Source: Candidatus Omnitrophota bacterium (lineage in GTDB: Bacteria; Omnitrophota; Gorgyraeia; Zapsychrales; Fredricksoniimonadaceae). Taken from it: DNA of 64,000 bases. The notes under the pieces are model-generated. The model ran no database searches and had not been told where the DNA came from. It saw only the letters and a program-made list of their open reading frames with translations. Position numbers and translations under genes: made by a program. The DNA is taken from NCBI GenBank assembly GCA_903860135.1, contig CAIOPG010000002.1:1192-65191 (forward strand), given 5' to 3'. Shown in pieces: positions 6,660 to 46,100 of this stretch; the stretch's first letter is position 1, and each line of letters begins with the position of its first letter.

Positions 6660-8066
6660 TTAAAAACCATACTGAAACTGCACTAAATATTCGTCATACG
6701 CCGCCCCTGCTACCACGCCCTTGTTCTGATTCGTCACATGATTCACATTCAGCTGAAGCTTGGTGGTTTCGGCGAAAAATATATTCAGCCCCAGCGTCCG
6801 GGTGCCGATCTGGTCATGGCTGACCGTTTTGTTCGGATCCCACTTCTCATAACGGATGAACGGCTGATAGGTCTTCGGATACCAGTCATCAAAGCGTTCC
6901 TGATCCTTGTTCTTCAGGAACTGCTGGCCGAAGTTATAATATCCCGTGAAAATATACCCGTCACTGCGCGTCTGGCGTTCCACGGCGTTGGCTGGCGTCG
7001 TCCCTGTCAAGGTGGGATCAATGCCCTGGGCATATTCAGCGGTAAGGCCGACGGGCATGCGGTTGTACGCCACATCATACCCCCACCTGTTCCTGTTCAA
7101 CCGGCGCGTAAGATTGGTGCTTGTCGATGATGTCACCGACTTCGGTCCGCTCCAACCGGAAACGCCTGCCGACAAACCTCTAAAAATGGAATTGTAATCC
7201 ACCGGCGCGTTCAACCCCACACGCCCGACAAGATCCTTGGACGCATTGTCATCCACCCCGTTACCGCTGGCCACACCCTTGCCGTTAACAACACCAAAAG
7301 CATATTCAACGAGTGGCGCGCGGTAATTGAACGCATAATCTGTCGTCGGCAAAAGATCACCGCGAAAAATGATACCGACGTCACGCGTCCCCAAAGCCAG
7401 GTTCGTATCCGTGAGGGCTGTGTTGATCGTTGGCTTGTATTCATCGCCCGTCTGCGGGTCACGCCCGAAAGGCTTTTTCTGCTGCCCCACCGCCACCGCT
7501 AATAATGGTGTCGATATATCCTTGGTCGCCAGAAAATTATACGTCAGGTAACCGTCGGTCAATAATGGCGCCGCACCATTGGCACTGCTCAACCCGAAAG
7601 CATAATCCAGGTTCTTGCCTTCCTGGTTATCTTTATACAGATTGCCTTTAAACGTCAACCCCACCGATGGCACGCTGAAGCCGTTGCTCGTCGTAGCCGT
7701 TGCGCTGCGCGATACAGTGGCGCGCGTTGTTACGGTGCCACCGAGCGTGAGCGAACGTTTGGTCTGGGCGGTCTTCTTGTCCAAGGTCCTCTGCCACTGA
7801 TCGCGCAGGGTGTCAAGGTCGTTCCTGACACCATCAAGGTCGTTCTGTGTGGCCACCTCCGCCGCAGGTTCCTGTGCCGTAACAGAAAATTTACCCTGCG
7901 CGGTCTTCACCGTCTTTAATTCATCCTTCAAGAACTTAACCTCATCGCGCAATGCCTGCAGTTCTCCTTTTAGATCTGCCAGGTCATCGGCAAATGCCGG
8001 ATCAAATGAATTGGCCAGAAAAATAACGGCCAATAATGCCACGGCGATACGTTTCAACTTCTTCAT
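6660..8066 (-). CDS. Outer-membrane porin (porin O/P-like beta-barrel) with N-terminal coiled-coil
   Basis: Signal peptide MKKLKRIAVALLAVIFLANSFDPAFA. Heptad-rich segment DLADLKGELQALRDEVKFLKDELK. Alternating amphipathic beta-strands, ending in ...QFQYGF (C-terminal Phe is an OMP signature). Confidence 0.55.
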   Translation of the reverse strand: MKKLKRIAVALLAVIFLANSFDPAFADDLADLKGELQALRDEVKFLKDELKTVKTAQGKFSVTAQEPAAEVATQNDLDGVRNDLDTLRDQWQRTLDKKTAQTKRSLTLGGTVTTRATVSRSATATTSNGFSVPSVGLTFKGNLYKDNQEGKNLDYAFGLSSANGAAPLLTDGYLTYNFLATKDISTPLLAVAVGQQKKPFGRDPQTGDEYKPTINTALTDTNLALGTRDVGIIFRGDLLPTTDYAFNYRAPLVEYAFGVVNGKGVASGNGVDDNASKDLVGRVGLNAPVDYNSIFRGLSAGVSGWSGPKSVTSSTSTNLTRRLNRNRWGYDVAYNRMPVGLTAEYAQGIDPTLTGTTPANAVERQTRSDGYIFTGYYNFGQQFLKNKDQERFDDWYPKTYQPFIRYEKWDPNKTVSHDQIGTRTLGLNIFFAETTKLQLNVNHVTNQNKGVVAGAAYDEYLVQFQYGF

Positions 8067-8195
8067 AAGAATCCCTCCCTTATCCTCTATTAATTTGCGT
8101 CTTCTCTATCTATGTCCTGAACTGTTCCCGCCCAACCTTCACGGCAGCGCTGCTTTGTGCTGTGACGCCCAGTTCTTAAAAAAAGAAAAAGGCTA

Positions 8196-8225
8196 AAAAA
8201 ACATCCGGGTCGTCCCGAATATATC
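8196..8225 (-). terminator. Putative rho-independent terminator downstream of the tautomerase gene
   Basis: Minus-strand read UCGGGACGACCCGA hairpin followed by UGUUUUUUUAGCC. Confidence 0.4.
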
Positions 8226-8274
8226 TTTAGCCTTCCAGTTGACTGGTAAAACTAACGCAACTATTTTTGCTACA

Positions 8275-8454
8275 TCATCCCAGGAGGTTGTCCCCCTTGG
8301 CCCAATTTTCCGCGCTATACTCCTCGATCACCAACTGCGTCTTATCCTTGGCCTTGCCCACCACCTTTAACAAGGTATCCGAGAATTCCCTGGCAATGAT
8401 TTGCTTCTGTTCGCGGGTCAATTTCCCAACAAGCTTCAAGTTAATGAACGGCAT
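8275..8454 (-). CDS. 4-oxalocrotonate tautomerase family protein (59 aa; below the ORF-track length cutoff)
   Basis: Hand translation: MPFINLKLVGKLTREQKQIIAREFSDTLLKVVGKAKDKTQLVIEEYSAENWAKGDNLLG. Met-Pro start (catalytic Pro1 after Met removal), about 60 aa, beta-alpha-beta tautomerase pattern. It overlaps the spurious plus-strand ORF 8267..8470. Confidence 0.7.
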   Translation of the reverse strand: MPFINLKLVGKLTREQKQIIAREFSDTLLKVVGKAKDKTQLVIEEYSAENWAKGDNLLG

Positions 8455-8818
8455 AGTTTTCCTTTCCTAAAATAAAAAACCCACTCTATCAGCTCAACCA
8501 GCGATAAGTAGTGGGTTGTCCCGTCTACGCATCAAATCCAATATCACGACCATCTCTACTGAGATGGTAGAAATATACCACACGCAACAAAGTTGTCAAG
8601 AATATTTTTTACACCCGACGACGCTGAAACTATTTATTAATGAAAACATCCTCTGCTCACCCTTTCACCGGAAAAATCTTCAGGTATTCTCCGGCAGGAG
8701 TAACGGATAATATACGCGGGGCTTTTCGACATGTTTAGCGCAAATACTGCGTTCCCTTGATCATTATTGCGGAAATTCCGAATTTATGATATTCTTCATG
8801 GAAGAAAAGGAGATCGTT

Positions 8819-9061
8819 ATGACGATTACATTGACAGGAAAAAATCAGATCACTATCCCTGGAAAATTTGTAAAACACCTCGGACTATCGAGAGGATCAC
8901 TGTTTGACATCCGGCTCAACGGCAACCGGCTGGAACTTGTCCCCATGGAAACCATCGAAAAGACATTCACCGATGAAGAATACCTGAAACTTGAAAACAT
9001 TTTTCAGAAAGAAAAAAATACCGCCAAAAAGATAACATGCGAAAATATCGAAAGGCTCTAA
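8819..9061 (+). CDS. Type II antitoxin, AbrB/MazE/SpoVT looped-hinge-helix family
   Basis: MTITLTGKNQITIPGKFVKHLGLSRGSLFDIRLNGNRLELVP is the SpoVT/AbrB-like swapped-hairpin pattern. RBS AAGGAG lies 8 nt upstream of this ATG. It is 3 nt upstream of the toxin gene. Confidence 0.6.
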   Translation: MTITLTGKNQITIPGKFVKHLGLSRGSLFDIRLNGNRLELVPMETIEKTFTDEEYLKLENIFQKEKNTAKKITCENIERL

Positions 9062-9064
9062 CCC

Positions 9065-9367
9065 ATGCCTTACGAACTTCTTTTGTTATCATCTTTCGAA
9101 CGTGCTATCAAACGGCTTGATCCTAATGAAAAAGCAACGATCAAATTGGCCTTACAAGCACTTTTGATCTATTTCTCGTCCAATAACAATCTTGAAGAAG
9201 CCCAAAGAATAGCACCCAGGTTTTTCTTTAAACAACTGCGCAAGCCATTCTATGAAACTGGTATCGAAGGCAGACTCCGCATTGTGCTCCGTAAAGACGA
9301 CCTGTCATTCTTTGCGATCCTCGCCGGCAATCACGATGATGTCCAACGACTCCTGATGCGAAGCTAA
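9065..9367 (+). CDS. Type II toxin, RelE/ParE superfamily (putative)
   Basis: 100 aa. FERAIKRLDPNEKATIKLAL...GRLRIVLRKDDLSFFAILAGNHDDV matches the RelE/ParE layout (xxKxL motif with C-terminal catalytic region). It follows the AbrB-type antitoxin. Confidence 0.5.
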   Translation: MPYELLLLSSFERAIKRLDPNEKATIKLALQALLIYFSSNNNLEEAQRIAPRFFFKQLRKPFYETGIEGRLRIVLRKDDLSFFAILAGNHDDVQRLLMRS

Positions 9368-9391
9368 AAACACCCTGTCAACAACGACCTT

Positions 9392-10222
9392 TCACAACCC
9401 CCGGCTCCGGCGCAGTTCGTCGTCGGGAACGATCAGGACATTGGGCTTGCCTGAAATAGGGTTTTTGTTCACCACCACGATCGTTTTATAAACTTCTTCG
9501 ATAACCTGGTAATTGATGACTTCTTCGGGGGTTCCCGCTGTAAAAATACGCCCGCTTGACATCAGCGCCATGCGGCTGCAATATTCACTGGCCAGATTAA
9601 GGTCGTGCAAGACCATGACCACCGTCAAATTCATTTCTCTGACAAGCTTCCTTAAAAGATCCATGATCACCACTTGGTGCGTGATATCGAGGTGCGCTGT
9701 TGGTTCATCGAGCAACAAGAGGCGCGGTTCCTGGGCGAGTGCGCGGGCGATCCCGGCCAGCTGACGTTCGCCGCCGCTCAGCTGATTCATCGGCTTGTCG
9801 CGCAAACGCAGTGAATCCGTCAACGCCATGCTCTTTAAGGCCACCGCGCTATCCTGCGCTGACTCCACAAACTGCATATCTTTAAAATACGGCAACCGGC
9901 CTAAAAGGACGAACTCCTCGACCGTCAGATCAACCACCGGAAGGACCTGTGCCACCACCGTGACCTGACGCGCCAGATCACGCCCGGGGATAGCCGCAAG
10001 CCTCTGCCCGTCAAGGATGATCTCCCCAGCCATAGGCCTGATCGCCCGTGACACGGCGCGCAGCAACGTGGTCTTGCCTGAACCATTAGGACCGATAAGC
10101 CCGAAGAATTCACCGCGCTGAACATCAAGATCAACGCCGGAAATAATGGTTTTCTTCCCATAACCACAGGCAAGCCCGGTGACCTTAAGCATGTTCAGCG
10201 CCTCCTTTTTTAGCAAGCGCAT
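9392..10222 (-). CDS. ABC transporter ATP-binding protein, FecE/FepC/BtuD-like (iron-siderophore/cobalamin importer ATPase)
   Basis: Walker A GPNGSGKTTLLRAVS, signature LSGGERQLAGIARAL, Walker B LLLLDEPTAHLD. The likely true start is the internal MLKVTGL. Confidence 0.85.
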   Translation of the reverse strand: MRLLKKEALNMLKVTGLACGYGKKTIISGVDLDVQRGEFFGLIGPNGSGKTTLLRAVSRAIRPMAGEIILDGQRLAAIPGRDLARQVTVVAQVLPVVDLTVEEFVLLGRLPYFKDMQFVESAQDSAVALKSMALTDSLRLRDKPMNQLSGGERQLAGIARALAQEPRLLLLDEPTAHLDITHQVVIMDLLRKLVREMNLTVVMVLHDLNLASEYCSRMALMSSGRIFTAGTPEEVINYQVIEEVYKTIVVVNKNPISGKPNVLIVPDDELRRSRGL

Positions 10223-18581: not shown

Positions 18582-19628
18582 TCATAACGACCTCTGCGCC
18601 CAGCGCACGACCGCGCTCCTGGAACGCGGGTTATCGTGACGCTCCTGTGCCCCGGCCCGGATCGGTTCACGGCTGATGGCCGCATACACCCCTGACACAC
18701 ACCCGGCCTCCAACGCCTGCATCACGCGGTTATCTTCACCGGAATGAAATGTCAAAATAGCCGCCTTACCGCCGGGCTTAAGGCAGAACGGCAAATGCCT
18801 CAGGAATTGCTCGAGCACCTGAAATTCATCGTTAACAGCAATGCGCAGGGCCTGAAATGTCCTGCGGACCGAACGGGTATTTTCCTCTTCCGCAGCGTCA
18901 GTCGACGGCCGGGGCAATGCGCGCCGCACCGCCGCACACAGGGCTGTTGTGGTCAGGATCGGCTGGCGGCATTTAAACACCGCCTTGGCGATCCCCTTGG
19001 CCTGCGGCTCATCCGCATGGGCGATGAGGATTTGCTCGAAATCTTTTTCGGATAATGACTGAAGAAGGGCTGCTGCCGATTGCCCGCGCCCGGGATTCAG
19101 CCGCAGGTCCAGCGGGCCTTCATGCTTGAAAGTAAACCCGCGTGCCGGATCATCCAACTGCATCGACGACACCCCCAGGTCCGCGAGGATCAGGTCAAAC
19201 CCCTGCCCCGCCTCCGCCGCAAGCCTGGACACCCCGGCAAAATTCATGCACCGCGCCTTGAATACCTCTTCCCCATACCCCAGTGCCGTCAGGCGCGCCA
19301 CGGTACGTTTGATCTCGACAGGATCCGCATCGATCCCCCACAGGCAACCGCCGGGGATAATGCGTGCCAGGATCTCGCGGGCATGCCCGCCATAGCCCAG
19401 CGTCGCATCGAGCACCACCTGACCCGGCCGCGGATCAAGGATCGCCAGGATCTCCGCCACACACACCGAACGGTGCGTACCCGCCAGGGTTTTCCCGCCA
19501 AGGACGATCTTTGACGCCTCTTCCGCATAACGCGCCGCGTCATGCTCTTTGTATTTCTCGTCAAACCTGCGCGGATGCTTCCCCGCATACCGCGCCCGGC
19601 GCTGAGGCAAAAGAGGATCAACTGACAT
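18582..19628 (-). CDS. rsmH: 16S rRNA (cytosine1402-N4)-methyltransferase RsmH (MraW)
   Basis: VCVAEILAILDPRPGQVVLDATLGYGGHAREIL...GIDADPVEI matches the RsmH SAM-binding core. It has an N-terminal extension of about 40 aa and is not followed by ftsL/ftsI. Confidence 0.8.
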   Translation of the reverse strand: MSVDPLLPQRRARYAGKHPRRFDEKYKEHDAARYAEEASKIVLGGKTLAGTHRSVCVAEILAILDPRPGQVVLDATLGYGGHAREILARIIPGGCLWGIDADPVEIKRTVARLTALGYGEEVFKARCMNFAGVSRLAAEAGQGFDLILADLGVSSMQLDDPARGFTFKHEGPLDLRLNPGRGQSAAALLQSLSEKDFEQILIAHADEPQAKGIAKAVFKCRQPILTTTALCAAVRRALPRPSTDAAEEENTRSVRRTFQALRIAVNDEFQVLEQFLRHLPFCLKPGGKAAILTFHSGEDNRVMQALEAGCVSGVYAAISREPIRAGAQERHDNPRSRSAVVRWAQRSL

Positions 19629-19709
19629 TATTTCCTATCCCCCGCTGTTTCCAGATAAAATAATTTACTCTGATTAGCATACCACTAATATATAGTTTAT
19701 ACTTCGAGC

Positions 19710-22700
19710 ATGCATCGAAATTCTATTTTAACCCGCATCTATGCCATGATCACGGTATTTGCCTTTGGGGTGAATATGATCGGTCCCCTCTATGCGCAAT
19801 CCGGCCCATCATTCCTGCCGGACCCGGGGCATATGATCGCGTTAAGCCGCCCGTTTAATCCCTTGCTCCTCAAAGGGCTCAAGGTTTACCCGGACAATCC
19901 TTTCCGGTTTGAATTCATCCTCAATCCGGGCGATGCCAGCCTGGCAGGCCAGCCCCTGAAAGAAGCATCGGCACGCCTCATCAAATATTTCCTTGCCAGC
20001 CTCACGATCCCTGAAAAAGACCTTTGGGTTAACCTGTCTCCGTACGAAAAAAACCGCATCGTCCCCGAAACTTTCGGGCAAACCGAAATGGGGCGCGACT
20101 TGCTGGCGCAGGATTATCTCCTGAAACAGATAACCGCCTCGGCCATTTATCCGGAAAGCGACCTTGGCCAGCAATTCTGGCATAAAGTCTATGCCCAGGC
20201 ACAGCAAAAATACGGCACAACAGATATCCCGATCGACACCTTCAATAAAGTCTGGATCGTCCCCGCCAAAGCGGCCCTGTACGAAAATGCCGCCGCCGGC
20301 ACAGCCTACATAACGGGATCAAGTCTCAAGGTCATGCTGGAATCAGATTATAAGGCGATCACAGAGAATGAGTCATTCGCACGTAGGGGCGGGTCCGTGA
20401 CCCGCCCTCTTTTATCGGATACGCCAACACCTCAAGGCGTCGACCGCATGTCATCCGATATCGCCAAGAACGTCCTCCGCGAGTTCATCATCCCCGCGCT
20501 CGAGAAAGAAGTGAATACAGGAGAAAACTTTGCCCAACTGCGGCAGATCTATCAAGCCCTGATCCTGGCTACATGGTACAAACAAAAAGTAAAAAATTCT
20601 CTCCTGTCACGCGTTTATGTTGACCGGCATAAAATTACAGGCGTCCGTATCCCTGACCCCCGGGAATCCGAGAAAATCTGGAGCCGTTACGTCGAGGCAT
20701 TCCAACAGGGCGTGTTTAACTATATCCAGGAAACCCGGGATCCGGCAACAATGGAAACGATCCCCAGAAAATTCTTCGCCGGCGGGGTTGACGCGTCCGC
20801 CATCTCCACCATCATCGATGCCAGCGGATCGATCGCGCCTTCAGATGCCGCAGGGAACAACACCACGTTAAGCATTTTATTGGTTAAAACCAAGGATAAT
20901 GCCAGTCATGAACAGCAGGCACAATCTCTTTATGAAAGCATATGGCCGTCCCTCGTGCCCTGGGAAAAACTGCCGGCCATCAGCCAGAAAGTTTTTGAAT
21001 GGAGCCGGGGGAAGAACGATTGGGAACAATTATTAAAACTCCGATATTTCCATCCCAGATCATTTCTCCTGAGCCACCTCCCTGCTCTTGCAAGTTTTTT
21101 GGGATCACAACAGGATTGGATTAATCTCTATCCTTTTATAAAACACATTGCCTCTTTCGATGAACACAACCAGGATGTCTTATACAATAAAACACTGCCA
21201 GCCCTCTACGCTTGCTTCAAGGATCGCTTGCCGATCGAACAGATCCTTGTTATTGCCGGCTTATTAAAAAACGAAATCCCCTCTCAAGAGATTGAAGTAT
21301 TCATCAACACGTTCATGAAGCCTCATCTTGAAACAACACCCCTGAGCGTAGAAGATTTTATCGCTGAATCAAACCGACTTTTAGAATGGAACCAGTACCG
21401 GAGTATAAACAATTTTTATCCATTTATAGGAAGTGCCCTGTCCAAGGATGATATAACACCATTGCTGGCATCATCCCAAATATCAGAACCTGACAAATTC
21501 AAGCTGTTGACCGGTTTTTGCGTCACGCATCCTGAAGCGGCCGCCCAGGATATGTTGACATATTTCAATCAATTCAAGTCCGGGATCACTTTATCCCAGG
21601 CCTCCTGGCTTATACTTGCTTTCGGGAAAATAAAGACACCTGTCATATTGCCCTATATGATAAATCTCTGGAATAAATCCGATGACGACAATGACTATGA
21701 GAACGGCAAAATAATATTCTTATCAACCATAAAATATTGGCCCAGGAACCTTATTACTGCTCTCCTAAAGTCAGACGACATTCCGCCTTCCTTCGCTCTA
21801 GAGATGATGGCTACCGAGGCAGATAAACAATCTTTACAAGATGCCCCCAACGATCTTTGCCGCACCCTCTTTAAAATATCTTCTTATCAAGAGATCATCA
21901 AAAGCCTCAGAATACTTAATAGAATACCTGACGCCCTCATCTTAACCCCCTTGATAGATCGCCTTTTTCAATCGATGACCACGAGCATCCAGTTGTCTCT
22001 AGACCATGGCATCGGTGCAGAAGGATCAACAATTAACATTGCTAATTTGAAATCCATCGGCACTTTCCTGCACTTTTTCATCACCAACGCCCCTAACCTC
22101 GCCTATAATTGCAAATCATCCCTGACCCGCCTGATCCGCCGATTGCCTATAGGTAACCGGCAGATCAAGCGCGTGAAGGATATTGCTGACCAGCTGGTGG
22201 ACGCCGTCGGGGGCCGACGGCTTATCCTTGAGGGGGGGGCACATTTTATCGTAGACCTGCGCGACGAGATTCATAAGCACATCAACTTTCTGACCGTGTT
22301 CAAGGTCAAAGCCTACGCCCATTATCTATCGACAGGCGATCAAACCATGCTCCGAGCCATGGAAGTCACGATCGATGACGAAGCTCCATTCAGCAAGCTG
22401 TCCCTAATGCAAACTAATCGCATAACAAATGTAGAAACCATCCTCAACGAGCTTATAGAGAAAATGAATATCATTTTTAACGGCGGTGGGACAAATTCCA
22501 AAGAAGTAATCGTTAACTACAATCTTTCCATCCATCCCCTTAACATCGCATTACGGAACAGCTTTGATGCTGTATTGACCACATCCGAAACCCTCGACAC
22601 TCTTCTGTCCCAACCGTTAAACAACGACAGCCTTGTTGAAGGCTTGCGACTCATGACGCAACTGAAAGAATCCCTCGCCACCTTAAGAGCAGATGAACGC

Positions 22701-24845
22701 TACCGGGATGAACAACTGTTATTCCTCCTGCTCGACGTTGAACTCGAGACCTACCTTTATCGCCTGCTGGCCAAAATACCGCCGGAACAAGAGATGACGA
22801 TCCCCACCCTGCTGGCCATTCTTCATCCGGTCATCGGCCTGGCCCGGGAGAGTTTCAATATTCAAGCACAGGAAGAACTGGGCGTGATCAGCGATGAATT
22901 ACGGCAGATCATCGACGCTGAAAAAACCCCGGGGTCAACCGTCAACGGCTCTCCCCTGCGTGTATTTGCCATTGTCGAGCGCCTCCTGCGGCGGATCCGG
23001 CAGTTCAGCCAGGAAACCAGCGCGGTCTACCAGCCTATCGTCAACGACCAAACCCGAGGCCAAAATATCTTCGAAAAGGAAAAAATTGATGACGTTACGG
23101 CTGATCTTATCCGCGTGGAAAATCCTTATCAGCTTTCGCTGGTCGCGCAACAGCTCGAAGCTGTCCTTGCCCGGGAACTTCACCTGTCCTGGCTGGTGGC
23201 TCGTCCGGGAACAGGCCAGGGGCAGTTGATCCATGTGAAAGAATCTGACAATCTCCAGCAGGTGATCGACCAGTTGACCCAACCTGCCATCCTGATCGCG
23301 GAACGTATCCCGAATAATATCCTGCTAAACCCCTATGTCCGCGGCTATGTGACGCGCGAAGAACAGGGGGTCCTGTCGCATCCCGCCATACGTTCCGACA
23401 ACAATGCGCCGGTGGTCCTTGTCCAGGCGATCGGCAGTAAATACACGGAACTGATCGCCACAGCCGAGGCATCGCCGGATGCATTCTTCCAGATAACCGC
23501 CGCCGATAACGAGGTTGCTATCAACAAGATTGATACACTTGATCCAATGACGACCACCGCCCCCCAGGCCGCTATCCCCGTCGAGGCTGATCTCAGCATC
23601 AGGGGTCTGATCACTGATATTAATGCCTATACGCCGGAAACTGTCGGCAACAAAGGCTACAGCTTAAAACGCTTGCACGATGCCATCGAACGCCTGAAAG
23701 CCGCTGGTCTGATTCCCCAGAACTTCATTCTTTCGGTCCCCCAGAGCATTGCCTTGCCCTTTGGCTATTTTGAAGCGATCCTCGATGCCAATGGCGCCAT
23801 GGGCCAGCAGATCCGTACCTTACGGGAGCAGTTGAAGGCTCCCCCCGATGAGAATGACACCAAAGGCATCCTGATCCAGCTTGAACAACTGATCCTGCAA
23901 CTTGATATCGATCCCGAAATGATTGACACGATCGCTCACATCATCGGTGCTTCCATGGTGCGGTTGTGCCCCACGGTCGATGATCTTTCCAGGAATGCCG
24001 CCGCCGGTGTCTATGGCTCATTTGAACACGTGGCACGCGCTCAATTGGGCGACCATATCCGACGTGGCTACGCATCGTTATACACCCTCACGGCCTTCAT
24101 GGACAGGCGCCAGCATCAGATAGAGGAAGATAACGTTCACGCCGCGATGATTTTCCAGATCATGGCAACAGGCAATGCTTTTGTGGCTTTCAGCCAGGAC
24201 CCTACCCTTCAAAATGAAACGGATCGGCGGAACGCCATGCTGTTGGAAATGATCCCCGGGCTGGGCAAGACGCTCATGTCCGGCGAACCCGAATTCCAGG
24301 GATCCCCCCACCGCTTCAGATACTCCGTCAGCGCAGGCAATGCCCAGCGCCTGGCGTATGCCAACAAGAGCTACCGCCTTGTCGTCGACGCTGGGGTCTT
24401 GCAGGTGCGTTTGAATGATTACCGGCAGGATCCTTTAAGCCAGGAAGAAAATCCTTCATGGATCAAGGATCTGTTTGCGCTTCTTCGGGATATAACGGGC
24501 GATGCGACCATCGGCCGTGATATGGAAGGCTCCGTTGAGTTCAAAGACGGGATCTACTATGTGTTTCTACTGCAGGACCGTGACAATATAAAGTTCAATA
24601 CGACCAATACCGCCGGACAAACCGGAAAAGACGCCAAACGCTCCACCGCCAACCCGGAATATACAGGCGGTATTGACCTAAGGGCCCCGGCGTTAACACT
24701 CAACAAGAGCACCGTGCATTTTCAGTTTTCCCCCGATCAACTCGCCGCCTTCGAAAGCGCCCCCGGCCTGCGCCCCGTGATCCTCAAAGCCAGCCCGATC
24801 AAGGATCTGAAACTCTTCTTATCAACCCCCGCTGTTTCCAGATGA
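19710..24845 (+). CDS. Giant exported multidomain protein 1 (1711 aa): conserved N-terminal domain of unknown function, AT-rich variable core, PEP-utilizer phosphohistidine domain plus PPDK_N-type nucleotide-binding domain, conserved C-terminal tail
   Basis: Single uninterrupted ORF. Predicted signal peptide ...MIGPLYA|QS. The N-terminal ~330 aa are ~55-60% identical to the N-terminus of ORF 43155..47735. The C-terminal TGGIDL...APGLRPVI...DLKLFL tail is shared with that ORF. Confidence 0.8.
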   Translation: MHRNSILTRIYAMITVFAFGVNMIGPLYAQSGPSFLPDPGHMIALSRPFNPLLLKGLKVYPDNPFRFEFILNPGDASLAGQPLKEASARLIKYFLASLTIPEKDLWVNLSPYEKNRIVPETFGQTEMGRDLLAQDYLLKQITASAIYPESDLGQQFWHKVYAQAQQKYGTTDIPIDTFNKVWIVPAKAALYENAAAGTAYITGSSLKVMLESDYKAITENESFARRGGSVTRPLLSDTPTPQGVDRMSSDIAKNVLREFIIPALEKEVNTGENFAQLRQIYQALILATWYKQKVKNSLLSRVYVDRHKITGVRIPDPRESEKIWSRYVEAFQQGVFNYIQETRDPATMETIPRKFFAGGVDASAISTIIDASGSIAPSDAAGNNTTLSILLVKTKDNASHEQQAQSLYESIWPSLVPWEKLPAISQKVFEWSRGKNDWEQLLKLRYFHPRSFLLSHLPALASFLGSQQDWINLYPFIKHIASFDEHNQDVLYNKTLPALYACFKDRLPIEQILVIAGLLKNEIPSQEIEVFINTFMKPHLETTPLSVEDFIAESNRLLEWNQYRSINNFYPFIGSALSKDDITPLLASSQISEPDKFKLLTGFCVTHPEAAAQDMLTYFNQFKSGITLSQASWLILAFGKIKTPVILPYMINLWNKSDDDNDYENGKIIFLSTIKYWPRNLITALLKSDDIPPSFALEMMATEADKQSLQDAPNDLCRTLFKISSYQEIIKSLRILNRIPDALILTPLIDRLFQSMTTSIQLSLDHGIGAEGSTINIANLKSIGTFLHFFITNAPNLAYNCKSSLTRLIRRLPIGNRQIKRVKDIADQLVDAVGGRRLILEGGAHFIVDLRDEIHKHINFLTVFKVKAYAHYLSTGDQTMLRAMEVTIDDEAPFSKLSLMQTNRITNVETILNELIEKMNIIFNGGGTNSKEVIVNYNLSIHPLNIALRNSFDAVLTTSETLDTLLSQPLNNDSLVEGLRLMTQLKESLATLRADERYRDEQLLFLLLDVELETYLYRLLAKIPPEQEMTIPTLLAILHPVIGLARESFNIQAQEELGVISDELRQIIDAEKTPGSTVNGSPLRVFAIVERLLRRIRQFSQETSAVYQPIVNDQTRGQNIFEKEKIDDVTADLIRVENPYQLSLVAQQLEAVLARELHLSWLVARPGTGQGQLIHVKESDNLQQVIDQLTQPAILIAERIPNNILLNPYVRGYVTREEQGVLSHPAIRSDNNAPVVLVQAIGSKYTELIATAEASPDAFFQITAADNEVAINKIDTLDPMTTTAPQAAIPVEADLSIRGLITDINAYTPETVGNKGYSLKRLHDAIERLKAAGLIPQNFILSVPQSIALPFGYFEAILDANGAMGQQIRTLREQLKAPPDENDTKGILIQLEQLILQLDIDPEMIDTIAHIIGASMVRLCPTVDDLSRNAAAGVYGSFEHVARAQLGDHIRRGYASLYTLTAFMDRRQHQIEEDNVHAAMIFQIMATGNAFVAFSQDPTLQNETDRRNAMLLEMIPGLGKTLMSGEPEFQGSPHRFRYSVSAGNAQRLAYANKSYRLVVDAGVLQVRLNDYRQDPLSQEENPSWIKDLFALLRDITGDATIGRDMEGSVEFKDGIYYVFLLQDRDNIKFNTTNTAGQTGKDAKRSTANPEYTGGIDLRAPALTLNKSTVHFQFSPDQLAAFESAPGLRPVILKASPIKDLKLFLSTPAVSR
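23290..23520 (+). other. PEP-utilizing-enzyme mobile (phosphohistidine) domain within giant protein 1
   Basis: VARPGTGQGQLIHV...PAILIAERIPNNILLNPYVRGYVTREEQGVLSHPAIRSDNNAPVVLV aligns to the consensus G.VTe.GG.TSHAAI.ARE.GIPAVVG. The predicted catalytic His is in LSHPAI. Confidence 0.7.
23620..24580 (+). other. PPDK_N / PEP-synthase-type ATP(nucleotide)-binding domain within giant protein 1
   Basis: ETVGNKGYSLKRL (cf. LGGKNASLGEM), IPQNFILS (cf. VPNGFATT), VRLCPTVDDLSRNAAAGVYGSF (cf. VRSSATAEDMPDASFAGQQETF), AFVAFSQDP...LLEMIPGLGKTLMSGE (cf. GVMFSRDP...IEAAWGLGEAVVSG). Confidence 0.75.
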
Positions 24846-27800: not shown

Positions 27801-28053
27801 AGAAGCCACGGATCGATTTCACATCCGGCGCCCCCAGGAGGGCCGTCACAACAGGATAGGTGACCTGATCCTCAATGATATCCGGCGAGCGATCCCAGCG
27901 GGAATAAACAATGACCTGCGTATCCGAAAGATCCGGGATAGCATCGAGCGGAATATTCCTGATACTGTACACAGCCCCCAATATAGCCGCCAGCGTCAGG
28001 ATCATGACGATATATTTATTTTTCGCCGAGAATTCTATGATTTTCTCGATCAT
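24799..28053 (-). CDS. cusA: Heavy-metal efflux RND pump, CusA/CzcA family
   Basis: 1084 aa, 12-TM RND. MIEKIIEFSAKNKYIVMILTLAAILG...IPLDAIPDLSDTQVIVYSRW... matches the CusA N-terminus. Its 3' end overlaps the 3' end of giant gene 1 (convergent). Confidence 0.9.
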   Translation of the reverse strand: MIEKIIEFSAKNKYIVMILTLAAILGAVYSIRNIPLDAIPDLSDTQVIVYSRWDRSPDIIEDQVTYPVVTALLGAPDVKSIRGFSDFGYSFVYIIFKDGTDIYWARSRTLEYLNKVLPRLPEGVKTEIGPDATSVGWVYQYALVDKSGKNDLAQLRSFQDWYLRYWLQAVPGVAEVASVGGFQKQYQVNVKPNALLAYNMPLTRVIDAVRNSNNDVGGRLIELAGTEYMVRGRGYIKSVKDIEDIVIGNDAQGTPILVKNVASVVIGPEMRRGIADLDGEGDTVGGIVLMRSGENALNVIERVKEKLKDVKASLPPGVELVTTYDRSDLIHRAIDTLKHQLIEEMIIVALVIIFFLWHFPSASVPIITIPIAVLLSFIPMLMMKLTSNIMSLAGIAISIGVLVDGAIIEVENAYKKLQLWDAGGRQGDYRDVLLKALKEVGPSVFFSLLVIAVAFLPVFTLLDQEGRLFRPLAFSKNFAMAIAAILAVTLNPAMRMFFTRLDPICFKPVWISAAFNSLFVGKYYAEEKHPVSRVLFKYYEPVCRFVLKYRKQTLIAAGILVLSTIPVFMRLGSEFMPPLNEGAILYMPTTLPGLSVTGAGELLQQMDKVIKTVPEVERVFGKAGRAETSTDPAPFSMMETTIILKPESEWRHVPRWYSALPGFLQMPFRAIWPDRISWEDVIADLDKKMQFPGVSNAWTMPIKARIDMLSTGIRTPVGIKVYGADLAQIEKVGIAVEGIVKGIKGARSVYAERVTGGYFIDFDIKRLALAPYGLSVKDVEDVIVSAIGGETVTTTIEGRERYTVNVRYARDFRDDLPQLRRVLVPTPSGAHVPLEQLATINLTTGPAMIRDENGMLAGYVYVDIAGRDVGSFVAEARKAVEAQLKVPTGYSLQWSGQFENMLRVRERMRVVLPLTIFLIFILLYMNTRSPVKAGIVMLAVPFSLVGAVWLLWLLGYNMSIAVWVGMIALMGLDAETGVFMLLFLDMAYDDAVRQGKMKTREDLTEAIVHGAVKRVRPKLMTVAAMFMGLVPIMWSTGAGADVMKRIAAPMIGGIFSSFILELLVYPVIYFIWKQRGLIRRVSDP

Positions 28054-35973: not shown

Positions 35974-36050
35974 TGGTCGGGAGAGGGGGGTTTGAACCCC
36001 CGACCTCAACGTCCCGAACGTTGCGCGCTAGCCAGCTGCGCTATCTCCCG
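35974..36050 (-). tRNA. tRNA-Pro (anticodon CGG), 3' CCA encoded
   Basis: Reverse complement: CGGGAGATAGCGCAGCTGGCTAGCGCGCAACGTTCGGGACGTTGAGGTCGGGGGTTCAAACCCCCTCTCCCGACCA. Cloverleaf with anticodon loop UUCGGGA. Confidence 0.85.
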
Positions 36051-41186: not shown

Positions 41187-41206
41187 AGAGAATTCTTTCC
41201 TTTGTC

Positions 41207-41237
41207 AAATGACCAAAAAAACCGCCTTCCCGGCGGT
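41207..41237 (-). terminator. Hairpin plus U-run in the ribBA leader (putative attenuator/terminator)
   Basis: Minus-strand ACCGCCGGGAAGGCGGUUUUUUUGG lies between a TTGACA-17 nt-TATTAT promoter-like element (about 41262..41290) and the ribBA start. The leader is too short for an FMN riboswitch. Confidence 0.3.
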
Positions 41238-41302
41238 AATAGTTTTTCATAATATTCTAATTATAAAAGCTTGTCAAGCCGTTTATCCCCCCTTCAGACG
41301 TC

Positions 41303-42532: not shown

Positions 42533-42686
42533 ATTTGGTAATCATGATTTTCAATTATAATAATGATATTTAATTTGTCAACAAAAAGTCGGAACCTATC
42601 CAAATTTTGAACATATTTAGCGCGATAGTATACAGGCATTCTAAATGCTCTTGTAATTATAATTCATAACCCTTAAGATAGTTCCC

Positions 42687-43166
42687 ATGACACAGCTCCA
42701 ACACCTCGCGCAACACTTGACCGCCAGCCGCCAAACTTTAGCCACCGCCGAATCCTGCACCGGCGGGCTGATCGCCCATACCCTGACCAATATCCCCGGC
42801 GCTTCGGCCTGGTTTAAAGGCGGGGTCGTGGCTTATGCCAATACGGCCAAATCTGATATGCTGGGAGTCGCTCCTGAGCTGATCCTGCAACACGGCGCGG
42901 TCAGTGCCCCAGTGGCAGAAGCCATGGCTCAGGGTGCACGCCTGCGCTTTGATACCACTTTCGCCATCGCCACAACCGGCATCGCCGGTCCATCGGGCGG
43001 CACACCCGCCAAGCCCGTGGGCCTTGTCTTCATCGCCGTTGCCTCGGCCAAAACAACAACCGCCTCAAAATTTCTTTTTACCGGAACCCGCGCCCGGATC
43101 AAACGCCAAACCCTGGCCACAGCCATCAAACTGCTCAACGCACGACTGTCACTTTCAATGCTGTGA
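42687..43166 (+). CDS. CinA C-terminal domain protein (nicotinamide-nucleotide amidohydrolase PncC-like)
   Basis: 159 aa. LATAESCTGGLIAHTLTNIPGASAWFKGGVVAYAN matches CinA_C. Confidence 0.8.
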   Translation: MTQLQHLAQHLTASRQTLATAESCTGGLIAHTLTNIPGASAWFKGGVVAYANTAKSDMLGVAPELILQHGAVSAPVAEAMAQGARLRFDTTFAIATTGIAGPSGGTPAKPVGLVFIAVASAKTTTASKFLFTGTRARIKRQTLATAIKLLNARLSLSML

Positions 43167-46100
43167 AGACGGCATTCCCAGAAACGCCGGCAGATCCACC
43201 GCATCCTCCACGCCAATAATCACCGGCACAAATCCCGGCGCCGCCGCCAACCGCGCCACCTCAGCCGGGTCAACATCAAAAACATCCCCCATCGCACCCG
43301 CTGTCGAGATCCGCATCCGGTCAGCCGTCAGATCAATACCACCGGTGCCATTCGCCCTGTCAATCACTGGACTCTTCAACAATTCACTTTGATTAACTAT
43401 CCTCTTTAAGATACTATCCGCTGTTAAATTACCCTCTTGACTCGCCTTTTCCAAAGCACGAATAATACCTAAACTATTTTCAACCAGAAACTTATTCATT
43501 TCCTCAACGTTATTTATCCCGCTCGGGAGAATTTTACGGATACGCGCACTATATCTAACCCCTGAAGAATTTACCTTGTTTTTCCCTTGCAACAATAAAT
43601 CATGAATTGCAAAAGCGAAGATCTGATGCGCAAGGAATCGACTGTTCGGATCCAGGGATATCCATAAAAACAAAGAAGGCTGTTTATCTTTGTAATTTTC
43701 AACAACCTGAATTGCAAGAATATCTGAACTTTTCATGGAAACAGCTACATAAATATCCGTTCCCGTCTTCGTATTAGATAATTCATCAACCAAAACCAAC
43801 AATCCCAATATTTTGCCAGTCATAGCGAATTGAGGATTAATTGTAATGACCTTTTTTAATTTTTCCAGAAAAAGGGTTCTCTTGTTTCCTTTTAAATCAC
43901 TGAATCTAACAACATCAGCCAATAAATATTGCCCATCACGTTCAAAAACAACCTTATTCACTAATTCACCAGTAAACAAATTAAACGCACCCTCATCTTT
44001 CAACTCATTATTTGAAGCAAAGTCAGCGACTGTATTGCGTTTTACTACATCATTTTGACCCTGAGTTGTCGTTGCGATCTCGCGCAAATAGGCTGTTTCC
44101 CGCGTATGCCGGGCCATAAGGTCATCGCCTGATGCTACGGTGATGTAGGGATTTTGTTGCTGGATCAAGCCCAGCATCGCCGTAGCAGATGCCTGTTCTT
44201 TTTGGGAGACTTCTTTTGTTTCAGCCATGCGCCATCCCAATATCGCTTTAGAATAAATCGTCCGTAACAACACGCTGTTCAAGCGCGCAACTTCCTGATC
44301 ATTCAAAGAATTTTCATCCTTGACAGCCTTTTGCAACAAAACTTTAGCATCCTCGTCCAGCCAGCGCTTGTCAGCATCTTCGACATAACGATAAAAATCC
44401 CGCCGTTGCACGATGGCATTAATCAAATTCTTCGGCGTGCTCCGTGGATAAAGGGTCTTTAATAAAAATCTTTTGAATCGTTTCCCATCCGAAGTATTAT
44501 TCAGTTTGATCCATTCTTGTGCATCAATAAGGTCCCTTGATTGAACGCTAAGAGTCTTAATAATGGTATTAATTGCGTGCAAGTGGTCATCACTTAATGC
44601 ATGGGCCTGCTTTAACTTAACAAAAGCAATAAATGATGCTTCGCTTTTATTCAAAGCGTCAATGAGCTCTTCCATAGAAGTCCCTGACGAAATGGACATC
44701 TTCGTATCAGATTCAATTAAACGAGTCAATGCCTGTAGTTGATCAAAATCTTCAAATTCAGCCACTTTCAAATCCAGAAAGCCATTAATCACTTGCATAA
44801 AATCACTCTTTAAAACATCCTTCAACGAAGCATTTGTAAGCTTCGCTAATTCTTGAAGCATTAACTGATTAGTCTTCTGGTGCTTATCGTCCCCGATGGC
44901 CTCACGCAATAATTCAACATCAAGGTCGCCCGGCGTGACCACAAAAGAATTCTTCATAAAATTATGCCTTATAAGGGCGCGCACCTGACTCCGGTTCAAC
45001 GGTTCATTTATCTTGCGAGGCTTTTTGTTCTGAATATCCATCAACCAACTAACACGCTGGCCGGTCTTCGTTTCCCCTTTCACTAGAGCAGCGTTCAATT
45101 CCTGAAGAAAACTTTCAGATCCCAGCAATGCATTAACCCTGTCAATGTCTGTATCTGCCGACGGGACATTAAATCCGGCACGCTCAATCGCCGCAATAAC
45201 CTCTACCACCCTGGCATTGCTGAATTTATCGCCGCGCCTTTGAAACTCTGGCTTTAAAAAAAACGAAAGGCTTTGCAATAATCCATGGATCACACGATGC
45301 GCATTATGCCATAAAAATACAAACCCTTCTTTTTCGATCTGTTCCTGGTCATGCCAGGCAAACGCAGTGACCTGATCGACCGCCGAAAAACTACCTTGCC
45401 GGTAGAAATTTATCCGCGATCCCATCACGAGATGACCTGTTTTCTTTTCAACAACCTGAACAGCCATAATCTCCAACTGCCCCTTCTTGTTTCTTTCTAC
45501 AGCCGCATAAACCTCGCGTTGGCCCAACAACCCCTTGGCAATGGTTTTAGCCAATGAAAGCGTCGAAAAAACATCCCCGGCATTGATGGCCCCCATACTC
45601 CGGCTCTGCCTCACCAAGGCCTTGACAAATGCTTGCCGCAATAGCTTCGCCTCCTCACTTTTCGTCGCGCTCACCTTGACCACATCCACAGCCCGGTACT
45701 CGCCCCCGGGGCTTTGCATGATCACTTTCTTTTCCAAAGCGCCATTGAACAGACGAACATCCTCGGTTGAATTCTCCTTTAAACTTGCCTGTCCATCCGA
45801 TCCTTGTTGTTCGGACAAGCTGTGTCCCAAGTTTTTATTGATTCTATTATTCAAATCAGGGGCATTCTGACCGGGGATCAACAAATTCTCATTGTCTCTC
45901 AATTGCTCCAACATCTTGTTTGCTGACACATTCCCCGCAAGCGCATCCGCGTTCAGTTCCACAATAATGTTATCCTGCACATACTTCAGCATACCCGGGA
46001 GATTGCTACGCATCGACGCCCTCTTCACCTCTCTAGATGACGCTCCAGGGGGCACATTGCTGAACCCAAAAGCCCCTCCCGCATCCATCATATCCAAAGA

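Follow-up and report, generated by a model that had tools for sequence, protein, structure and literature searches.

AT-rich payloads between host-like termini in two members of a multicopy Omnitrophota protein family

Two long genes with common termini and unrelated middles

The window analyzed here is a 64,000-nt stretch of the genome of a Candidatus Omnitrophota bacterium (GCA_903860135.1, contig CAIOPG010000002.1, positions 1,192 to 65,191, forward strand), with a mean GC of 0.527 to 0.533 by sliding-window GC and a GC of 0.417 in its ORF-free DNA. It contains two long genes, giant 1 (19710..24845, + strand, 5.1 kb) and giant 2 (43155..47735, - strand, 4.6 kb). The exact 1711-aa protein of giant 1 has been recorded repeatedly, on several contigs and in several samples, among them a 399-kb ENA scaffold and a 16-kb contig of a different assembly. 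Giant 2 is listed as an ORF of 1526 aa; its true start is likely the ATG at 47648 (aa 30, MRRIVALF...), because homology to giant 1 and the rest of the family begins there, which would give a protein of ~1497 aa. The initial annotation spoke of giant genes, a description that does not apply in the Omnitrophota sense of ORFs of >20 kb (PMC10066038), and both lengths are typical for the protein family to which the genes belong. Giant 1 lies between rsmH and cusA and giant 2 between cinA and a BI-1 gene. No secretion genes adjoin either gene in the window, and the only tRNAs in the window lie at 35974 and 61518.

Both proteins begin with an N-domain, at aa 1-360 in giant 1 (19710..20789, + strand) and aa 30-365 in giant 2 (46641..47648, - strand), and the two copies are 58% identical over ~357 aa. 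The first ~31 residues of giant 1, ending in ...PLYAQS, likely form a Sec signal peptide, as predicted from the sequence, and the AF2 model of the N-domain (pLDDT 82) has an N-terminal helix at aa 3-29. Both proteins end in a tail of ~60 aa with the pattern GGIDL ... F..DP ... G..PVI ... L..FLG. It spans aa 1652-1708 in giant 1 (24663..24833, + strand; TGGIDL...APGLRPVIL...LKLFL), where it aligns with the tails of other family members, and aa 1464-1523 in giant 2 (43167..43346, - strand; TGGIDL...APGFVPVII...LPAFLG), and the two tails share 35% identity. Only the N-domain and the tail are common to the two genes, and the payloads between them are unrelated.

The payload of giant 1 consists of an orphan spacer and a dikinase-like module. 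The spacer (aa ~422-724) has no detectable homologue among the matches listed in protein searches, in viral scans, or among the sampled family members. The dikinase-like module (aa 725-1627; 21882..24590, + strand) comprises a helical region, a candidate phosphohistidine-like domain (aa 1160-1247) with the motif VLSHPAIRS, and a PPDK_N ATP-grasp domain (PF01326; aa 1310-1627; 61.9 bits with the cut-off at 27; E 8.5e-17). The phosphohistidine domain model GWD1_pHisD matches giant 1 below its cut-off (E 0.0011, 18.9 bits against 27); two other members carry it in their payloads at E 2.8e-11, with PPDK_N there as well. A local tblastn search against 80 loci found two homologues of the module, the L030 and L007 proteins, to which it shows 24% collinear identity, and the VLSHPAIRS motif is conserved with L030. 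Protein searches with aa 361-1010 and aa 764-1651 found none among the matches listed; they count as weak evidence, since the window's own proteins were missed too, even though that of giant 1 is in the records. A metagenome scan for close relatives of the module gave 174 pattern matches, 0 of which were confirmed. The 3' half of giant 1 (22724..24660), a dikinase-like payload specific to that gene, is absent from giant 2.

The payload of giant 2 is built from three paralogous modules, m1, m2, and m3, and a helical module. The proximal payload (aa ~366-745; 45500..46640, - strand) holds m1 (aa 400-600) and the beginning of m2; the remainder of m2, the helical module (aa ~930-1111), and m3 (aa 1240-1462) follow. 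The helical module is common to other members, m3 has a GC-rich counterpart in the member P0122, and sub-modules of the payload reappear elsewhere in the family in different contexts. One member, P0121, is a collinear homologue of giant 2; its identity to giant 2 is 61% for the N-domain, 40% for m1, and 26% for aa 734-1104. Pfam searches of the giant 2 modules and the giant 1 orphan segment at E <= 5 returned only noise. Since the middles are unrelated and sub-modules of giant 2 are reused elsewhere, giant 1 and giant 2 do not owe their middles to in-place divergence from a single ancestral core, and the distribution of modules indicates that module shuffling has happened in the payloads of this family. 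The proposal of the initial annotation that the cores had not diverged in place therefore holds for the two middles as wholes. It fails for aa 851-1000 of giant 1, which align collinearly with the L030 protein, so that this part did diverge in place.

Base composition along the two genes

Segments of roughly 40 to 45% GC had been noted by eye in both genes, and the measured values agree: GC is 0.440 at 20900..22200 in giant 1 (locally 0.43 to 0.44) and 0.410 at 43450..45250 in giant 2, and the sliding-window profile is not flat. A GC of <=0.440 occurs in only 1.6% of same-size windows outside both genes, the comparably low ones being other AT-rich accessory blocks, and the giant 2 value is below all other same-size windows. 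Likelihood segmentation on all positions resolves a single AT-rich block in giant 2 (aa ~746-1453; 43375..45499, - strand; GC 0.410, GC3 0.41), and in giant 1 it places only one boundary above threshold, at 22724. Change-point segmentation on GC3 only is too weak to separate the internal structure of giant 1. By composition, that gene has an AT-rich segment 1 (aa ~400-800; 20900..22100, + strand; GC 0.43), a GC-normal island by sliding-window GC (~22110..22260), and a weaker AT-rich patch 2 (aa 851-1000; 22260..22709, with its edge at ~22710; GC 0.44 to 0.46, GC3 0.55, z -1.8) that sits within the conserved dikinase-like module. From 22724 on, GC in this module is normal (0.55). The AT shift ignores module boundaries: patch 2 lies inside an aligned module, and the fall in GC on the 5' side of the giant 2 block (aa ~700-950) is gradual and begins inside m2.

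The conserved termini have ordinary host composition. The N-domain of giant 1 has a GC of 0.523 and a GC3 of 0.61 (z -1.1), that of giant 2 a GC of 0.533 and a GC3 of 0.625 (z -0.2), and the tails have GC values of 0.57 and 0.61, respectively. The 55 to 60% GC ascribed to the termini by the initial annotation thus fits the tails (0.57 to 0.61) and is too high for the N-domains (0.52 to 0.53). The GC-normal 3' half of giant 1 is specific to that gene, and the conserved C-terminal module is only ~60 aa long. As this GC-normal half varies between the genes, "variable" is not the same as "AT-rich."

Third-position GC falls to 0.48 in giant 1 and to 0.41 in giant 2, against ~0.64. GC3 was compared with the value expected from each segment's amino acids under host codon usage. 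Over aa 400-800 of giant 1, the observed GC3 is 0.484 against an expected 0.629 (z -6.4), and over aa 881-1462 of giant 2 it is 0.411 against 0.632 (z -11.8), with a minimum of 0.27. The same z score in 40 host genes has an SD of 1.76 and a range of -4.8 to +3.4, and the codon usage of the segments is thus unlike that of the host. The proximal payload of giant 2 (GC 0.506) has a slight GC3 deficit, with a z of -5.1 over aa 366-880. In the two segments with the strongest shift, about half of the drop in GC comes from amino acid composition and about half from synonymous sites; amino acid composition as the sole cause was rejected because GC3 lies far under the amino acid-based expectation.

GC1 and GC2 also fall in the AT-rich segments, where amino acid composition is strongly shifted. 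N, L, and S are raised in both genes and I and F in giant 1; G and A are lowered in both; R is also lowered over aa 400-800 of giant 1, and P over aa 851-1000 of giant 1 and in giant 2. The cores had been described as rich in K, N, I, and L, which is right for N and L and, in giant 1, for I; K is not raised in the AT-rich segments of giant 1. The dinucleotide signature of the giant 1 segment lies at the 99th percentile of the null (atypical) and that of the giant 2 block at the 74th percentile (host-like), both being short segments. Third-position GC skew in + strand coordinates is -0.27 to -0.40 in the AT-rich segments of both genes against -0.17 in the host, that is, of the host's sign and stronger, though the two genes lie on opposite strands.

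Other genes in the window also vary in composition. A DUF4143 ATPase is AT shifted (z -6.8), as is a MazE-like block at 7915..9687, and giant 2 lies ~0.6 kb from another AT-rich accessory gene. Variation extends to housekeeping genes such as that for PNPase (z -4.8).

A large protein family and its family-wide AT shift

Giant 1 and giant 2 are members of a large, undescribed, multicopy Omnitrophota protein family. A database search with the N-domain gave 1338 protein matches at no fewer than 588 genomic loci, and the window genes are ~46 to 60% identical to hundreds of these matches, the best found being ~60%. The family N-domain is ~330 to 360 aa long, contains the motifs WVNLSPYE, TFNKVWIVP, and PRKYFSGG, and is preceded by a hydrophobic N-terminal helix, which by its sequence is likely a Sec-type signal peptide. 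The order N-domain, variable middle, and tail is found in 55 of 63 3'-complete members from other genomes (652 to 3071 aa). Payload length ranges from 0 to ~2700 aa, and the minimal member, P0017 (438 aa), has no cargo. No Pfam or NCBIfam model matched the N-domain or the tail (E <= 0.1), and comparison of the N-domain with PDB folds gave no match. A model of P0017 was uninformative on docking of the tail to the N-domain (tail pLDDT ~40 to 60). The Omnitrophota literature searched contains no description of the N-domain family or of the N-domain/tail scaffold. In IMG/VR, the N-domain profile found only 3 loci, so there is no phage link, and a viral scan with both AT-rich segments gave no match.

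The payloads contain 65 different Pfam families among 55 members, and homologues in another sampled member exist for only 40% of core residues. Normally cytoplasmic enzymes occur among them, including dikinases, protein kinases, an SNF2-type helicase, GGDEF domains, methyltransferases, and HAD/HD hydrolases.

The AT shift recurs throughout the family. Core GC3 is lower than N-domain GC3 at 51 of 55 loci (mean difference, -0.094) and in 32 of 33 genomes, and lower than the GC3 of flanking genes at 48 of 52 loci (mean, -0.107) and in 30 of 33 genomes; the GC3 of the N-domain and of the tail cannot be told apart from that of the flanks. Core GC3 also tracks the host: its correlation is r = 0.59 with the GC3 of the flanks and r = 0.70 (slope, 0.83) with that of the N-domain. 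Unrelated payloads of one genome converge: the SD of core GC3 is 0.037 within genomes against 0.088 overall (ANOVA, p 2e-5), and five members of one MAG, for example, have core GC3 values of 0.26 to 0.36. The mean core GC3 (0.411) is close to the GC of ORF-free DNA at the same loci (0.401), with a weak correlation across loci (r = 0.31; 30 loci with short noncoding samples). The idea that orphan segments are AT-richer than shared modules found no support, the GC3 deficits of -0.093 (orphan) and -0.080 (shared) not being significantly different. The collinear homologue P0121 (host GC3, 0.72 to 0.81) has the same mosaic as giant 2, with a GC3 of 0.74 to 0.79 in its N-domain and 0.29 to 0.54 in its core, and P0122 (host GC3, ~0.84) shows no dip. 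The GC-normal dikinase payload of giant 1 and the lack of a dip in P0122 show that payload status alone does not force AT-richness.

Origin of the shift and comparison with known systems

Horizontal acquisition cannot be called from an intragenic step in GC or GC3 alone. The step described here is present in 32 of 33 genomes and follows host composition from one genome to the next, and it therefore looks like a maintained, host-determined state; its spread across a large family makes it poor evidence for one recent gene transfer. We give a probability of about 0.5 to the reading that fast-evolving payloads are held near an AT-biased mutational equilibrium set by the host. The terminal modules would be under strong constraint and keep ordinary host composition. 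The payloads would evolve fast, their synonymous sites lying near the AT-biased equilibrium of the host genome, at roughly the composition of noncoding DNA, and their amino acid content approaching it to a smaller degree. The cause that we infer is that, with mutation biased toward AT, the synonymous sites of the payloads experience weaker selection or less biased gene conversion. The mosaic would then reflect different evolutionary regimes inside one gene and not the fading footprint of a recent foreign cassette.

The initial annotation had read the AT-rich cores as cassettes acquired on a conserved scaffold by recombination or horizontal transfer. Its architectural part stands, in that the middles are unrelated and sub-modules are reused. 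Its use of AT-richness as a mark of horizontal acquisition found no support, the shift being family-wide, host tracking, genome specific, about as large in shared modules as in orphan segments, and present in the deep homologue P0121. Import of the segments from AT-richer donors, such as other Omnitrophota or mobile elements, with amelioration still incomplete, keeps perhaps one chance in four, above all for the orphan segment of giant 1. The dinucleotide signature of that segment is atypical, and homology ceases to be detectable close to its limits (aa ~422 and ~725-800), as would be expected of an inserted cassette. In addition, the codon usage clearly differs from that of the host, the two genes have unrelated payloads, sub-modules reappear in other members in other contexts, m3 differs greatly in composition between giant 2 and its GC-rich counterpart in P0122, and a further AT-rich accessory gene lies close to giant 2. 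GC1 and GC2 are shifted more than GC3, a pattern that can also come from a segment ameliorating upward from an AT-rich donor; by the Lawrence-Ochman amelioration regressions, as these are reported to run, the first and second positions would imply a background even AT-richer than the third positions do. However, with the shift in 32 of 33 genomes, tracking host GC3, and with unrelated payloads converging within genomes, import would need donors whose GC3 is systematically ~0.1 lower than that of each host. The collinear homologue of giant 2 displays the same mosaic at only 26 to 61% identity, a divergence so deep that the relic of one old transfer should have ameliorated. One AT-rich patch lies inside a collinearly aligned module, the giant 2 boundary is gradual and within a domain, and the replication skew in the segments has the host's sign. 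No donor or close relative was found among the matches listed in protein, metagenome, and viral searches, and no tRNA or integrase was found at the junctions. The longest exact word common to the N-domain coding regions of giant 1 and giant 2 is 15 nt, which leaves no substrate for homologous exchange between them.

A second alternative, that AT-rich, nonoptimal codons are selected in the payloads for slower translation that aids cargo folding or export, for low expression, or for less mRNA structure, is improbable. The shift is systematic, payload specific, genome specific, and kept in deep homologues, which fits a selected and a neutral trait equally, and long ORFs remain intact in DNA with a GC of 0.40, which means that purifying selection for translation acts on the segments. 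Against codon-level selection, amino acid composition changes too, the composition equals that of ORF-free DNA, replication-strand skew is stronger alongside the shift, and other accessory genes of the window share it, which together suggest mutation pressure instead; moreover, the dikinase payload of giant 1 and P0122 are without the shift.

A metagenome-assembly chimera, in which the conserved N-domain joined a host contig to the payload of a lower-GC organism, might be suspected of a scaffold from a metagenome that carries a multicopy family found in co-occurring Omnitrophota, and it was rejected as extremely improbable: the identical 1711-aa protein is recorded on several contigs and in several samples, including both the 399-kb scaffold and the 16-kb contig, the pattern is repeated in 33 independent genomes, the two family copies of the window are 67% identical in DNA with no common word above 15 nt, and both ends of each gene regain host composition and housekeeping neighbors, so that two crossovers would be needed, one of them inside a tail of ~180 nt.

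The finding exposes a very large, multicopy, uncharacterized Omnitrophota family that combines an N-domain with a predicted signal and a conserved tail. From the domain annotations, its payload repertoire looks extraordinarily diverse and resembles an effector set. Predatory or parasitic lifestyles are suspected in Omnitrophota (PMC10066038). Tentatively, and with odds clearly below even, the scaffold of N-domain and tail may serve throughout the phylum to export or deliver a fast-changing enzyme arsenal, plausibly into or onto host or prey cells, and the AT shift may be a trace of arms-race payload turnover. Should the scaffold act in delivery or display, it would give a handle on how uncultured Omnitrophota nanobacteria interact with other cells, and it would provide a natural system for the effects of constraint on base composition inside single genes.

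Several known systems share parts of this organization. Rhs elements of Escherichia coli (YD-repeat polymorphic toxins) are likewise multicopy in a genome and combine, in one long ORF, a conserved and a variable part of clearly different base composition, the variable parts being thought to be exchanged by recombination. The Rhs type is marked by RHS/YD repeats and by a conserved core that ends in the motif PxxxxDPxGL. However, RHS/YD repeats were not detected in giant 1 and giant 2 (Pfam/NCBIfam, E <= 0.1), both termini are conserved here and the variable part is internal, and the payloads consist of enzyme-like or repeat domains instead of short toxin tips. In addition, it is the Rhs core that is compositionally odd for its host, whereas in the present family the conserved parts resemble the host and it is the payload that is shifted. 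MARTX toxins have conserved N- and C-terminal repeat regions around a variable effector-domain array, and in both systems conserved termini bracket effector or enzyme domains that are unrelated and, through domain shuffling, vary from one homologue to the next; the present family lacks RTX repeats, a cysteine protease domain, and any Pfam match in its conserved parts, and its proteins are much smaller and have a predicted Sec signal peptide instead of a type I secretion signal. Cargo proteins of type IX secretion (CTD) and those with PEP-CTERM/LPXTG-type tags combine an N-terminal signal peptide with a conserved C-terminal sorting domain. The family is similar in that an export signal and a short C-terminal element bracket very diverse cargo, and the cargo-free P0017 exists, but its tails match no Pfam/NCBIfam sorting-domain model, including the Por_Secre_tail type (E <= 0.1), and it has an extra conserved N-domain (~330 aa) without a PDB fold match.

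Within the same phylum, the giant proteins called "Archaeovorins" are encoded by ORFs of >20 kb with many transmembrane helices (10.1101/2023.11.21.568195; PMC10066038). Their sequences are also mostly poorly conserved, and their domain content overlaps with that of the family in HEAT, PPDK_N, HAD, HATPase_c, GGDEF, TPR, and methyltransferase-type domains; the family proteins differ in their size of 0.65 to 3 k aa (the window ORFs being 5.1 and 4.6 kb) and in having one N-terminal hydrophobic helix. The giant 1 payload resembles PEP-utilizing and glucan-water-dikinase-type dikinases in the order of a candidate phosphohistidine-like domain with its conserved His motif and a PPDK_N ATP-grasp domain. 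It differs from them in its best NCBIfam score for PEP synthase/rifampicin phosphotransferase (44 bits against a cut-off of 883), in that a PEP/pyruvate-binding TIM-barrel domain was not detected, and in its fusion behind a predicted signal peptide and the family N-domain.

Accessory and ORFan genes are reportedly AT-richer than core genes in bacterial genomes, as work by Daubin and Ochman, Hershberg and Petrov, Hildebrand et al., and Bohlin et al. is said to have established, and the standard explanations are an origin from mobile elements or relaxed selection under AT-biased mutation. The payloads described here conform to this tendency, in that the less conserved sequence is AT-richer within the same genome, synonymous sites included. 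The difference is that the present contrast lies inside a gene, among the modules of a single ORF, and recurs in dozens of paralogues and 33 genomes.

Conserved termini and variable payloads

The two giant genes, giant 1 (19710..24845, plus strand; 1711 aa) and giant 2 (43155..47735, minus strand; 1526 aa as listed), have in common only the N-terminal ~357 aa, which are 58% identical, and a ~60-aa C-terminal tail (35%) with the pattern TGGIDL...APG..PVI...L..FL. The N-domains common to both genes are encoded at 19710-20789 and 46641-47648, and giant 2 likely starts in fact at the ATG at 47648, the point from which it is homologous to giant 1. Plus-strand GC skew is negative in every 1-kb window of the whole window, and the minus strand carries almost all of the genes, so that giant 1, as one of the few genes on the plus strand, probably belongs to the lagging strand. 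Both genes have a convergent 3' overlap with a neighboring gene, giant 1 with a CusA/ACR_tran-type gene (24799-28053, minus strand) by 47 nt (24799-24845) and giant 2 with a CinA-domain gene by 12 nt (43155-43166).

A search with the N-domain retrieved 1338 proteins, and all source-named matches but one, from Auribacterota, are labelled Omnitrophota or Omnitrophica. The domain is present at a minimum of 588 loci in species-representative genomes, with several copies per genome; three family members (L084-L086, from IMG/VR) are on contigs classified as viral, versus hundreds on bacterial genomes. Neither Pfam nor NCBIfam has a model of the N-domain, and its AlphaFold model, of good quality (pLDDT 82), has no fold match in the PDB. 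Its start, a positively charged hydrophobic helix with A-x-A-like sites (YAQ|S and AYA|E), is a putative Sec signal peptide. The tail ends 55 of the 63 3'-complete family ORFs from 80 fetched loci, which range in length from 652 to 3071 aa. In a minimal member, P0017 (438 aa), a ~15-aa linker joins the N-domain to the tail and there is no payload; the scaffold therefore exists by itself. Across 55 members, the payloads contain 65 distinct Pfam families, among them methyltransferases, PPDK_N, protein kinases, HATPase_c, SNF2 helicase, GGDEF, HEAT/TPR, GDSL lipase, HAD, and GNAT. The conserved scaffold with a variable core described in the initial annotation is thus correct and general.

Payload modules and their recurrence

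The C-terminal half of giant 1 matches PPDK_N (E value of 8.5e-17) and has a weak phosphohistidine-like domain with the motif VLSHPAIRS, and it is predicted to be a dikinase-like module. Amino acids 725 to 1697 are collinear with the members at loci L030 and L007 (24% identity), so that the AT-rich patch at aa 851-1000 falls within a module whose sequences diverged in place; for this patch, the earlier view that the AT-rich cores did not diverge in place fails. For the first AT-rich segment (aa ~422-724), no relative is detectable among the matches listed in the homology searches. Its counterparts by position are equally unalignable spacers of ~450 aa (L007) and ~700 aa (L030), the latter likewise AT-shifted.

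The giant 2 protein has no match in Pfam or NCBIfam, and its isolated modules have none in Pfam. Its payload contains three paralogous modules of ~200 aa each, m1 (45936-46538), m2 (45126-45818), and m3 (43350-44018), all on the minus strand (28% identity; E values of 3e-6 and 5e-7), with the common motif ..Y(A/V)AV....(I/L)(L/M)A(V/I)Q.V and very unequal GC3 within one gene (about 0.56, 0.58, and 0.32, respectively). Of 1.84 billion representative proteins, an exhaustive HMMER search with the payload matched only 18. Five of the six sequences inspected are family members, four with the N-domain and tail and one cut at both ends, and the sixth, a membrane protein, lacks the N-domain. The inspected matches have a single sub-module in common with giant 2, and the rest of the payload is different. 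Module m3 also occurs in P0122, and the helical module (giant 2 aa ~930-1111) occurs in P0126, P0127, and P0131, with a further match in P0130 (5338 aa), outside the six inspected. This recurrence, at 32-49% identity, points to long-term shuffling of modules. The database protein P0121 (L082, GCA_013335325.1) is collinear with giant 2 in the N-domain (61%), m1 (40%), aa 734-1104 (26%), and further pieces. Between its N-domain and m1 it has an extra ~300 aa, absent from giant 2 and methyltransferase-like by eye, and this would illustrate how a module is gained or lost in an otherwise conserved payload order.

Composition of the payloads and its origin

The two AT-rich dips noticed by eye were borne out by fine GC profiles. 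The window has a GC of 0.527, and the GC is 0.440 at 20900..22200 in giant 1, as low a value being found in only 1.6% of same-size windows elsewhere, and 0.410 at 43450..45250 in giant 2, below every other same-size window. Likelihood segmentation delimited a clean block in giant 2 (43375..45499; GC of 0.410) and only a coarse split in giant 1, 19609..22723 (0.474) versus 22724 onward (0.553); a 100-codon profile places the giant 1 patches at aa ~400-800 and 851-1000, on either side of a GC-normal island. The GC profile is thus not flat, and synonymous usage in these segments departs from that of the host; the observation withstands the refuting conditions named in the initial annotation. Relative to the GC3 that each segment's amino acids would give with codon usage taken from 40 host genes, the observed GC3 is low in giant 1 aa 400-800 (0.484 versus 0.629; z of -6.4), giant 2 aa 881-1462 (0.411 versus 0.632; z of -11.8), and giant 2 aa 366-880 (0.551 versus 0.652; z of -5.1), and it is host-like in the N-domains, the tails, and the 3' half of giant 1 (absolute z of at most 1.1). 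Host genes have a z SD of 1.76 and a range of -4.8 to +3.4. The lowest GC3 of the ordinary genes is that of the core housekeeping gene for PNPase (54072-56180; 0.566, z of -4.8), and synonymous composition is therefore heterogeneous even across the conserved genes of this genome. In the two segments with strong AT richness, amino acid composition accounts for roughly half of the fall in GC, with N, L, and S raised and G and A lowered; of the proposed K/N/I/L richness, the N and L enrichment stands and that in K does not hold for giant 1.

Other accessory genes of the window are also AT-shifted, namely, a DUF4143 AAA ATPase gene and a MazE-like block. The former (DUF4143/AAA_14; 41303-42532; GC3 of 0.48, z of -6.8) lies in an AT-rich block adjoining giant 2 (41152-42683) and is followed by a 195-nt spacer with a GC of 0.26 (42489-42683), directly upstream of the GC-rich CinA-domain gene (42687-43166). 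The latter (7915-9687; GC of 0.44) is without long ORFs and holds small accessory-type genes. A MazE/AbrB-like antitoxin gene (8786-9061) and the following 100-aa ORF (9065-9367) could be a toxin-antitoxin pair, and a 59-aa ORF (8275-8454, minus strand) is tautomerase-like by eye.

The shift extends across the family. Across 33 genomes with flanking-gene GC3 values of 0.33 to 0.73, which supplied 55 complete members, payload GC3 is below that of the N-domain in 51 of 55 members (mean of -0.094; 32 of 33 genomes) and below that of the flanking genes in 48 of 52 (mean of -0.107; 30 of 33 genomes), with no significant difference between the flanks and either the N-domain or the tail. Payload GC3 follows that of the flanks (r of 0.59) and the N-domain (r of 0.70, slope of 0.83), and unrelated payloads in one genome have a genome-specific GC3 (within-genome SD of 0.037 versus 0.088 overall). 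The deficit is alike whether a payload window has a counterpart in another member (-0.080) or is an orphan (-0.093). Mean payload GC3 (0.411) equals the GC of ORF-free DNA at the same locus (0.401, from short noncoding samples per locus); ORF-free GC in the window is 0.417. In both giants, despite opposite transcription directions, third-position GC skew in the AT-rich segments, in plus-strand terms, has the host sign and is stronger than in the host.

These results fit a maintained, host-determined payload composition better than the fading signal of recent import. The simplest mechanism would be AT-biased mutation acting on payload sequences whose synonymous sites and many amino acid sites may be weakly constrained or rarely corrected by recombination. 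Import of AT-rich payloads from elsewhere is less likely. It draws most on the orphan segment of giant 1, which has limits matching homology boundaries and an atypical dinucleotide signature (99th percentile; the giant 2 block is host-like at the 74th, in a test that is noisy for 1- to 2-kb segments), and on the larger shift in GC1 and GC2 than in GC3. However, the deficit recurs in 32 of 33 genomes, tracks the host, and converges among unrelated payloads of one genome, and the same mosaic is found in P0121, a deep collinear homolog from a much GC-richer genome (GC3 of 0.72-0.81 in the flanks, 0.74-0.79 in the N-domain, and 0.29-0.54 in the payload); P0122, with a host GC3 of about 0.84, has no compositional mosaic. 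A single old transfer is disfavored because amelioration is expected in lineages as divergent as those of giant 2 and P0121, and repeated recent transfers are disfavored because they require donors systematically ~0.1 GC3 units below each recipient and similar GC3 for unrelated payloads within each genome. The suggestion that the cores are exchanged cassettes is partly supported, by the recurrence of m3 and the helical module in different payloads, and AT richness, family-wide and host-tracking, is poor evidence of their import. Selection for slow codons in payloads is improbable, and an assembly chimera is very unlikely.

Comparison with known systems

The two genes belong to a modular, polymorphic protein family whose variable parts are distinct in composition, and no description of the N-domain and tail family was found in the literature searched on Omnitrophota. 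The N-domain and tail may be a scaffold that delivers, throughout the phylum, an effector-like arsenal with fast turnover, as suggested by the combination of a putative signal peptide with payloads needing cytoplasmic substrates. MARTX toxins and signal-peptide/C-terminal-sorting-domain cargo have a similar architecture, but their defining domains were not detected in the family genes of the window. The giant Omnitrophota "Archaeovorins" have the phylum and domain repertoire in common with the family but differ in size class and topology. Rhs elements, the classic case of a compositional mosaic inside one gene, join a GC-rich core to a variable extension that is AT-rich (PMC7259588), and the likeness is in this mosaic; the YD repeats that define Rhs elements are absent from the window's family genes, which, in contrast, carry the variable part internally and have host-like conserved parts.
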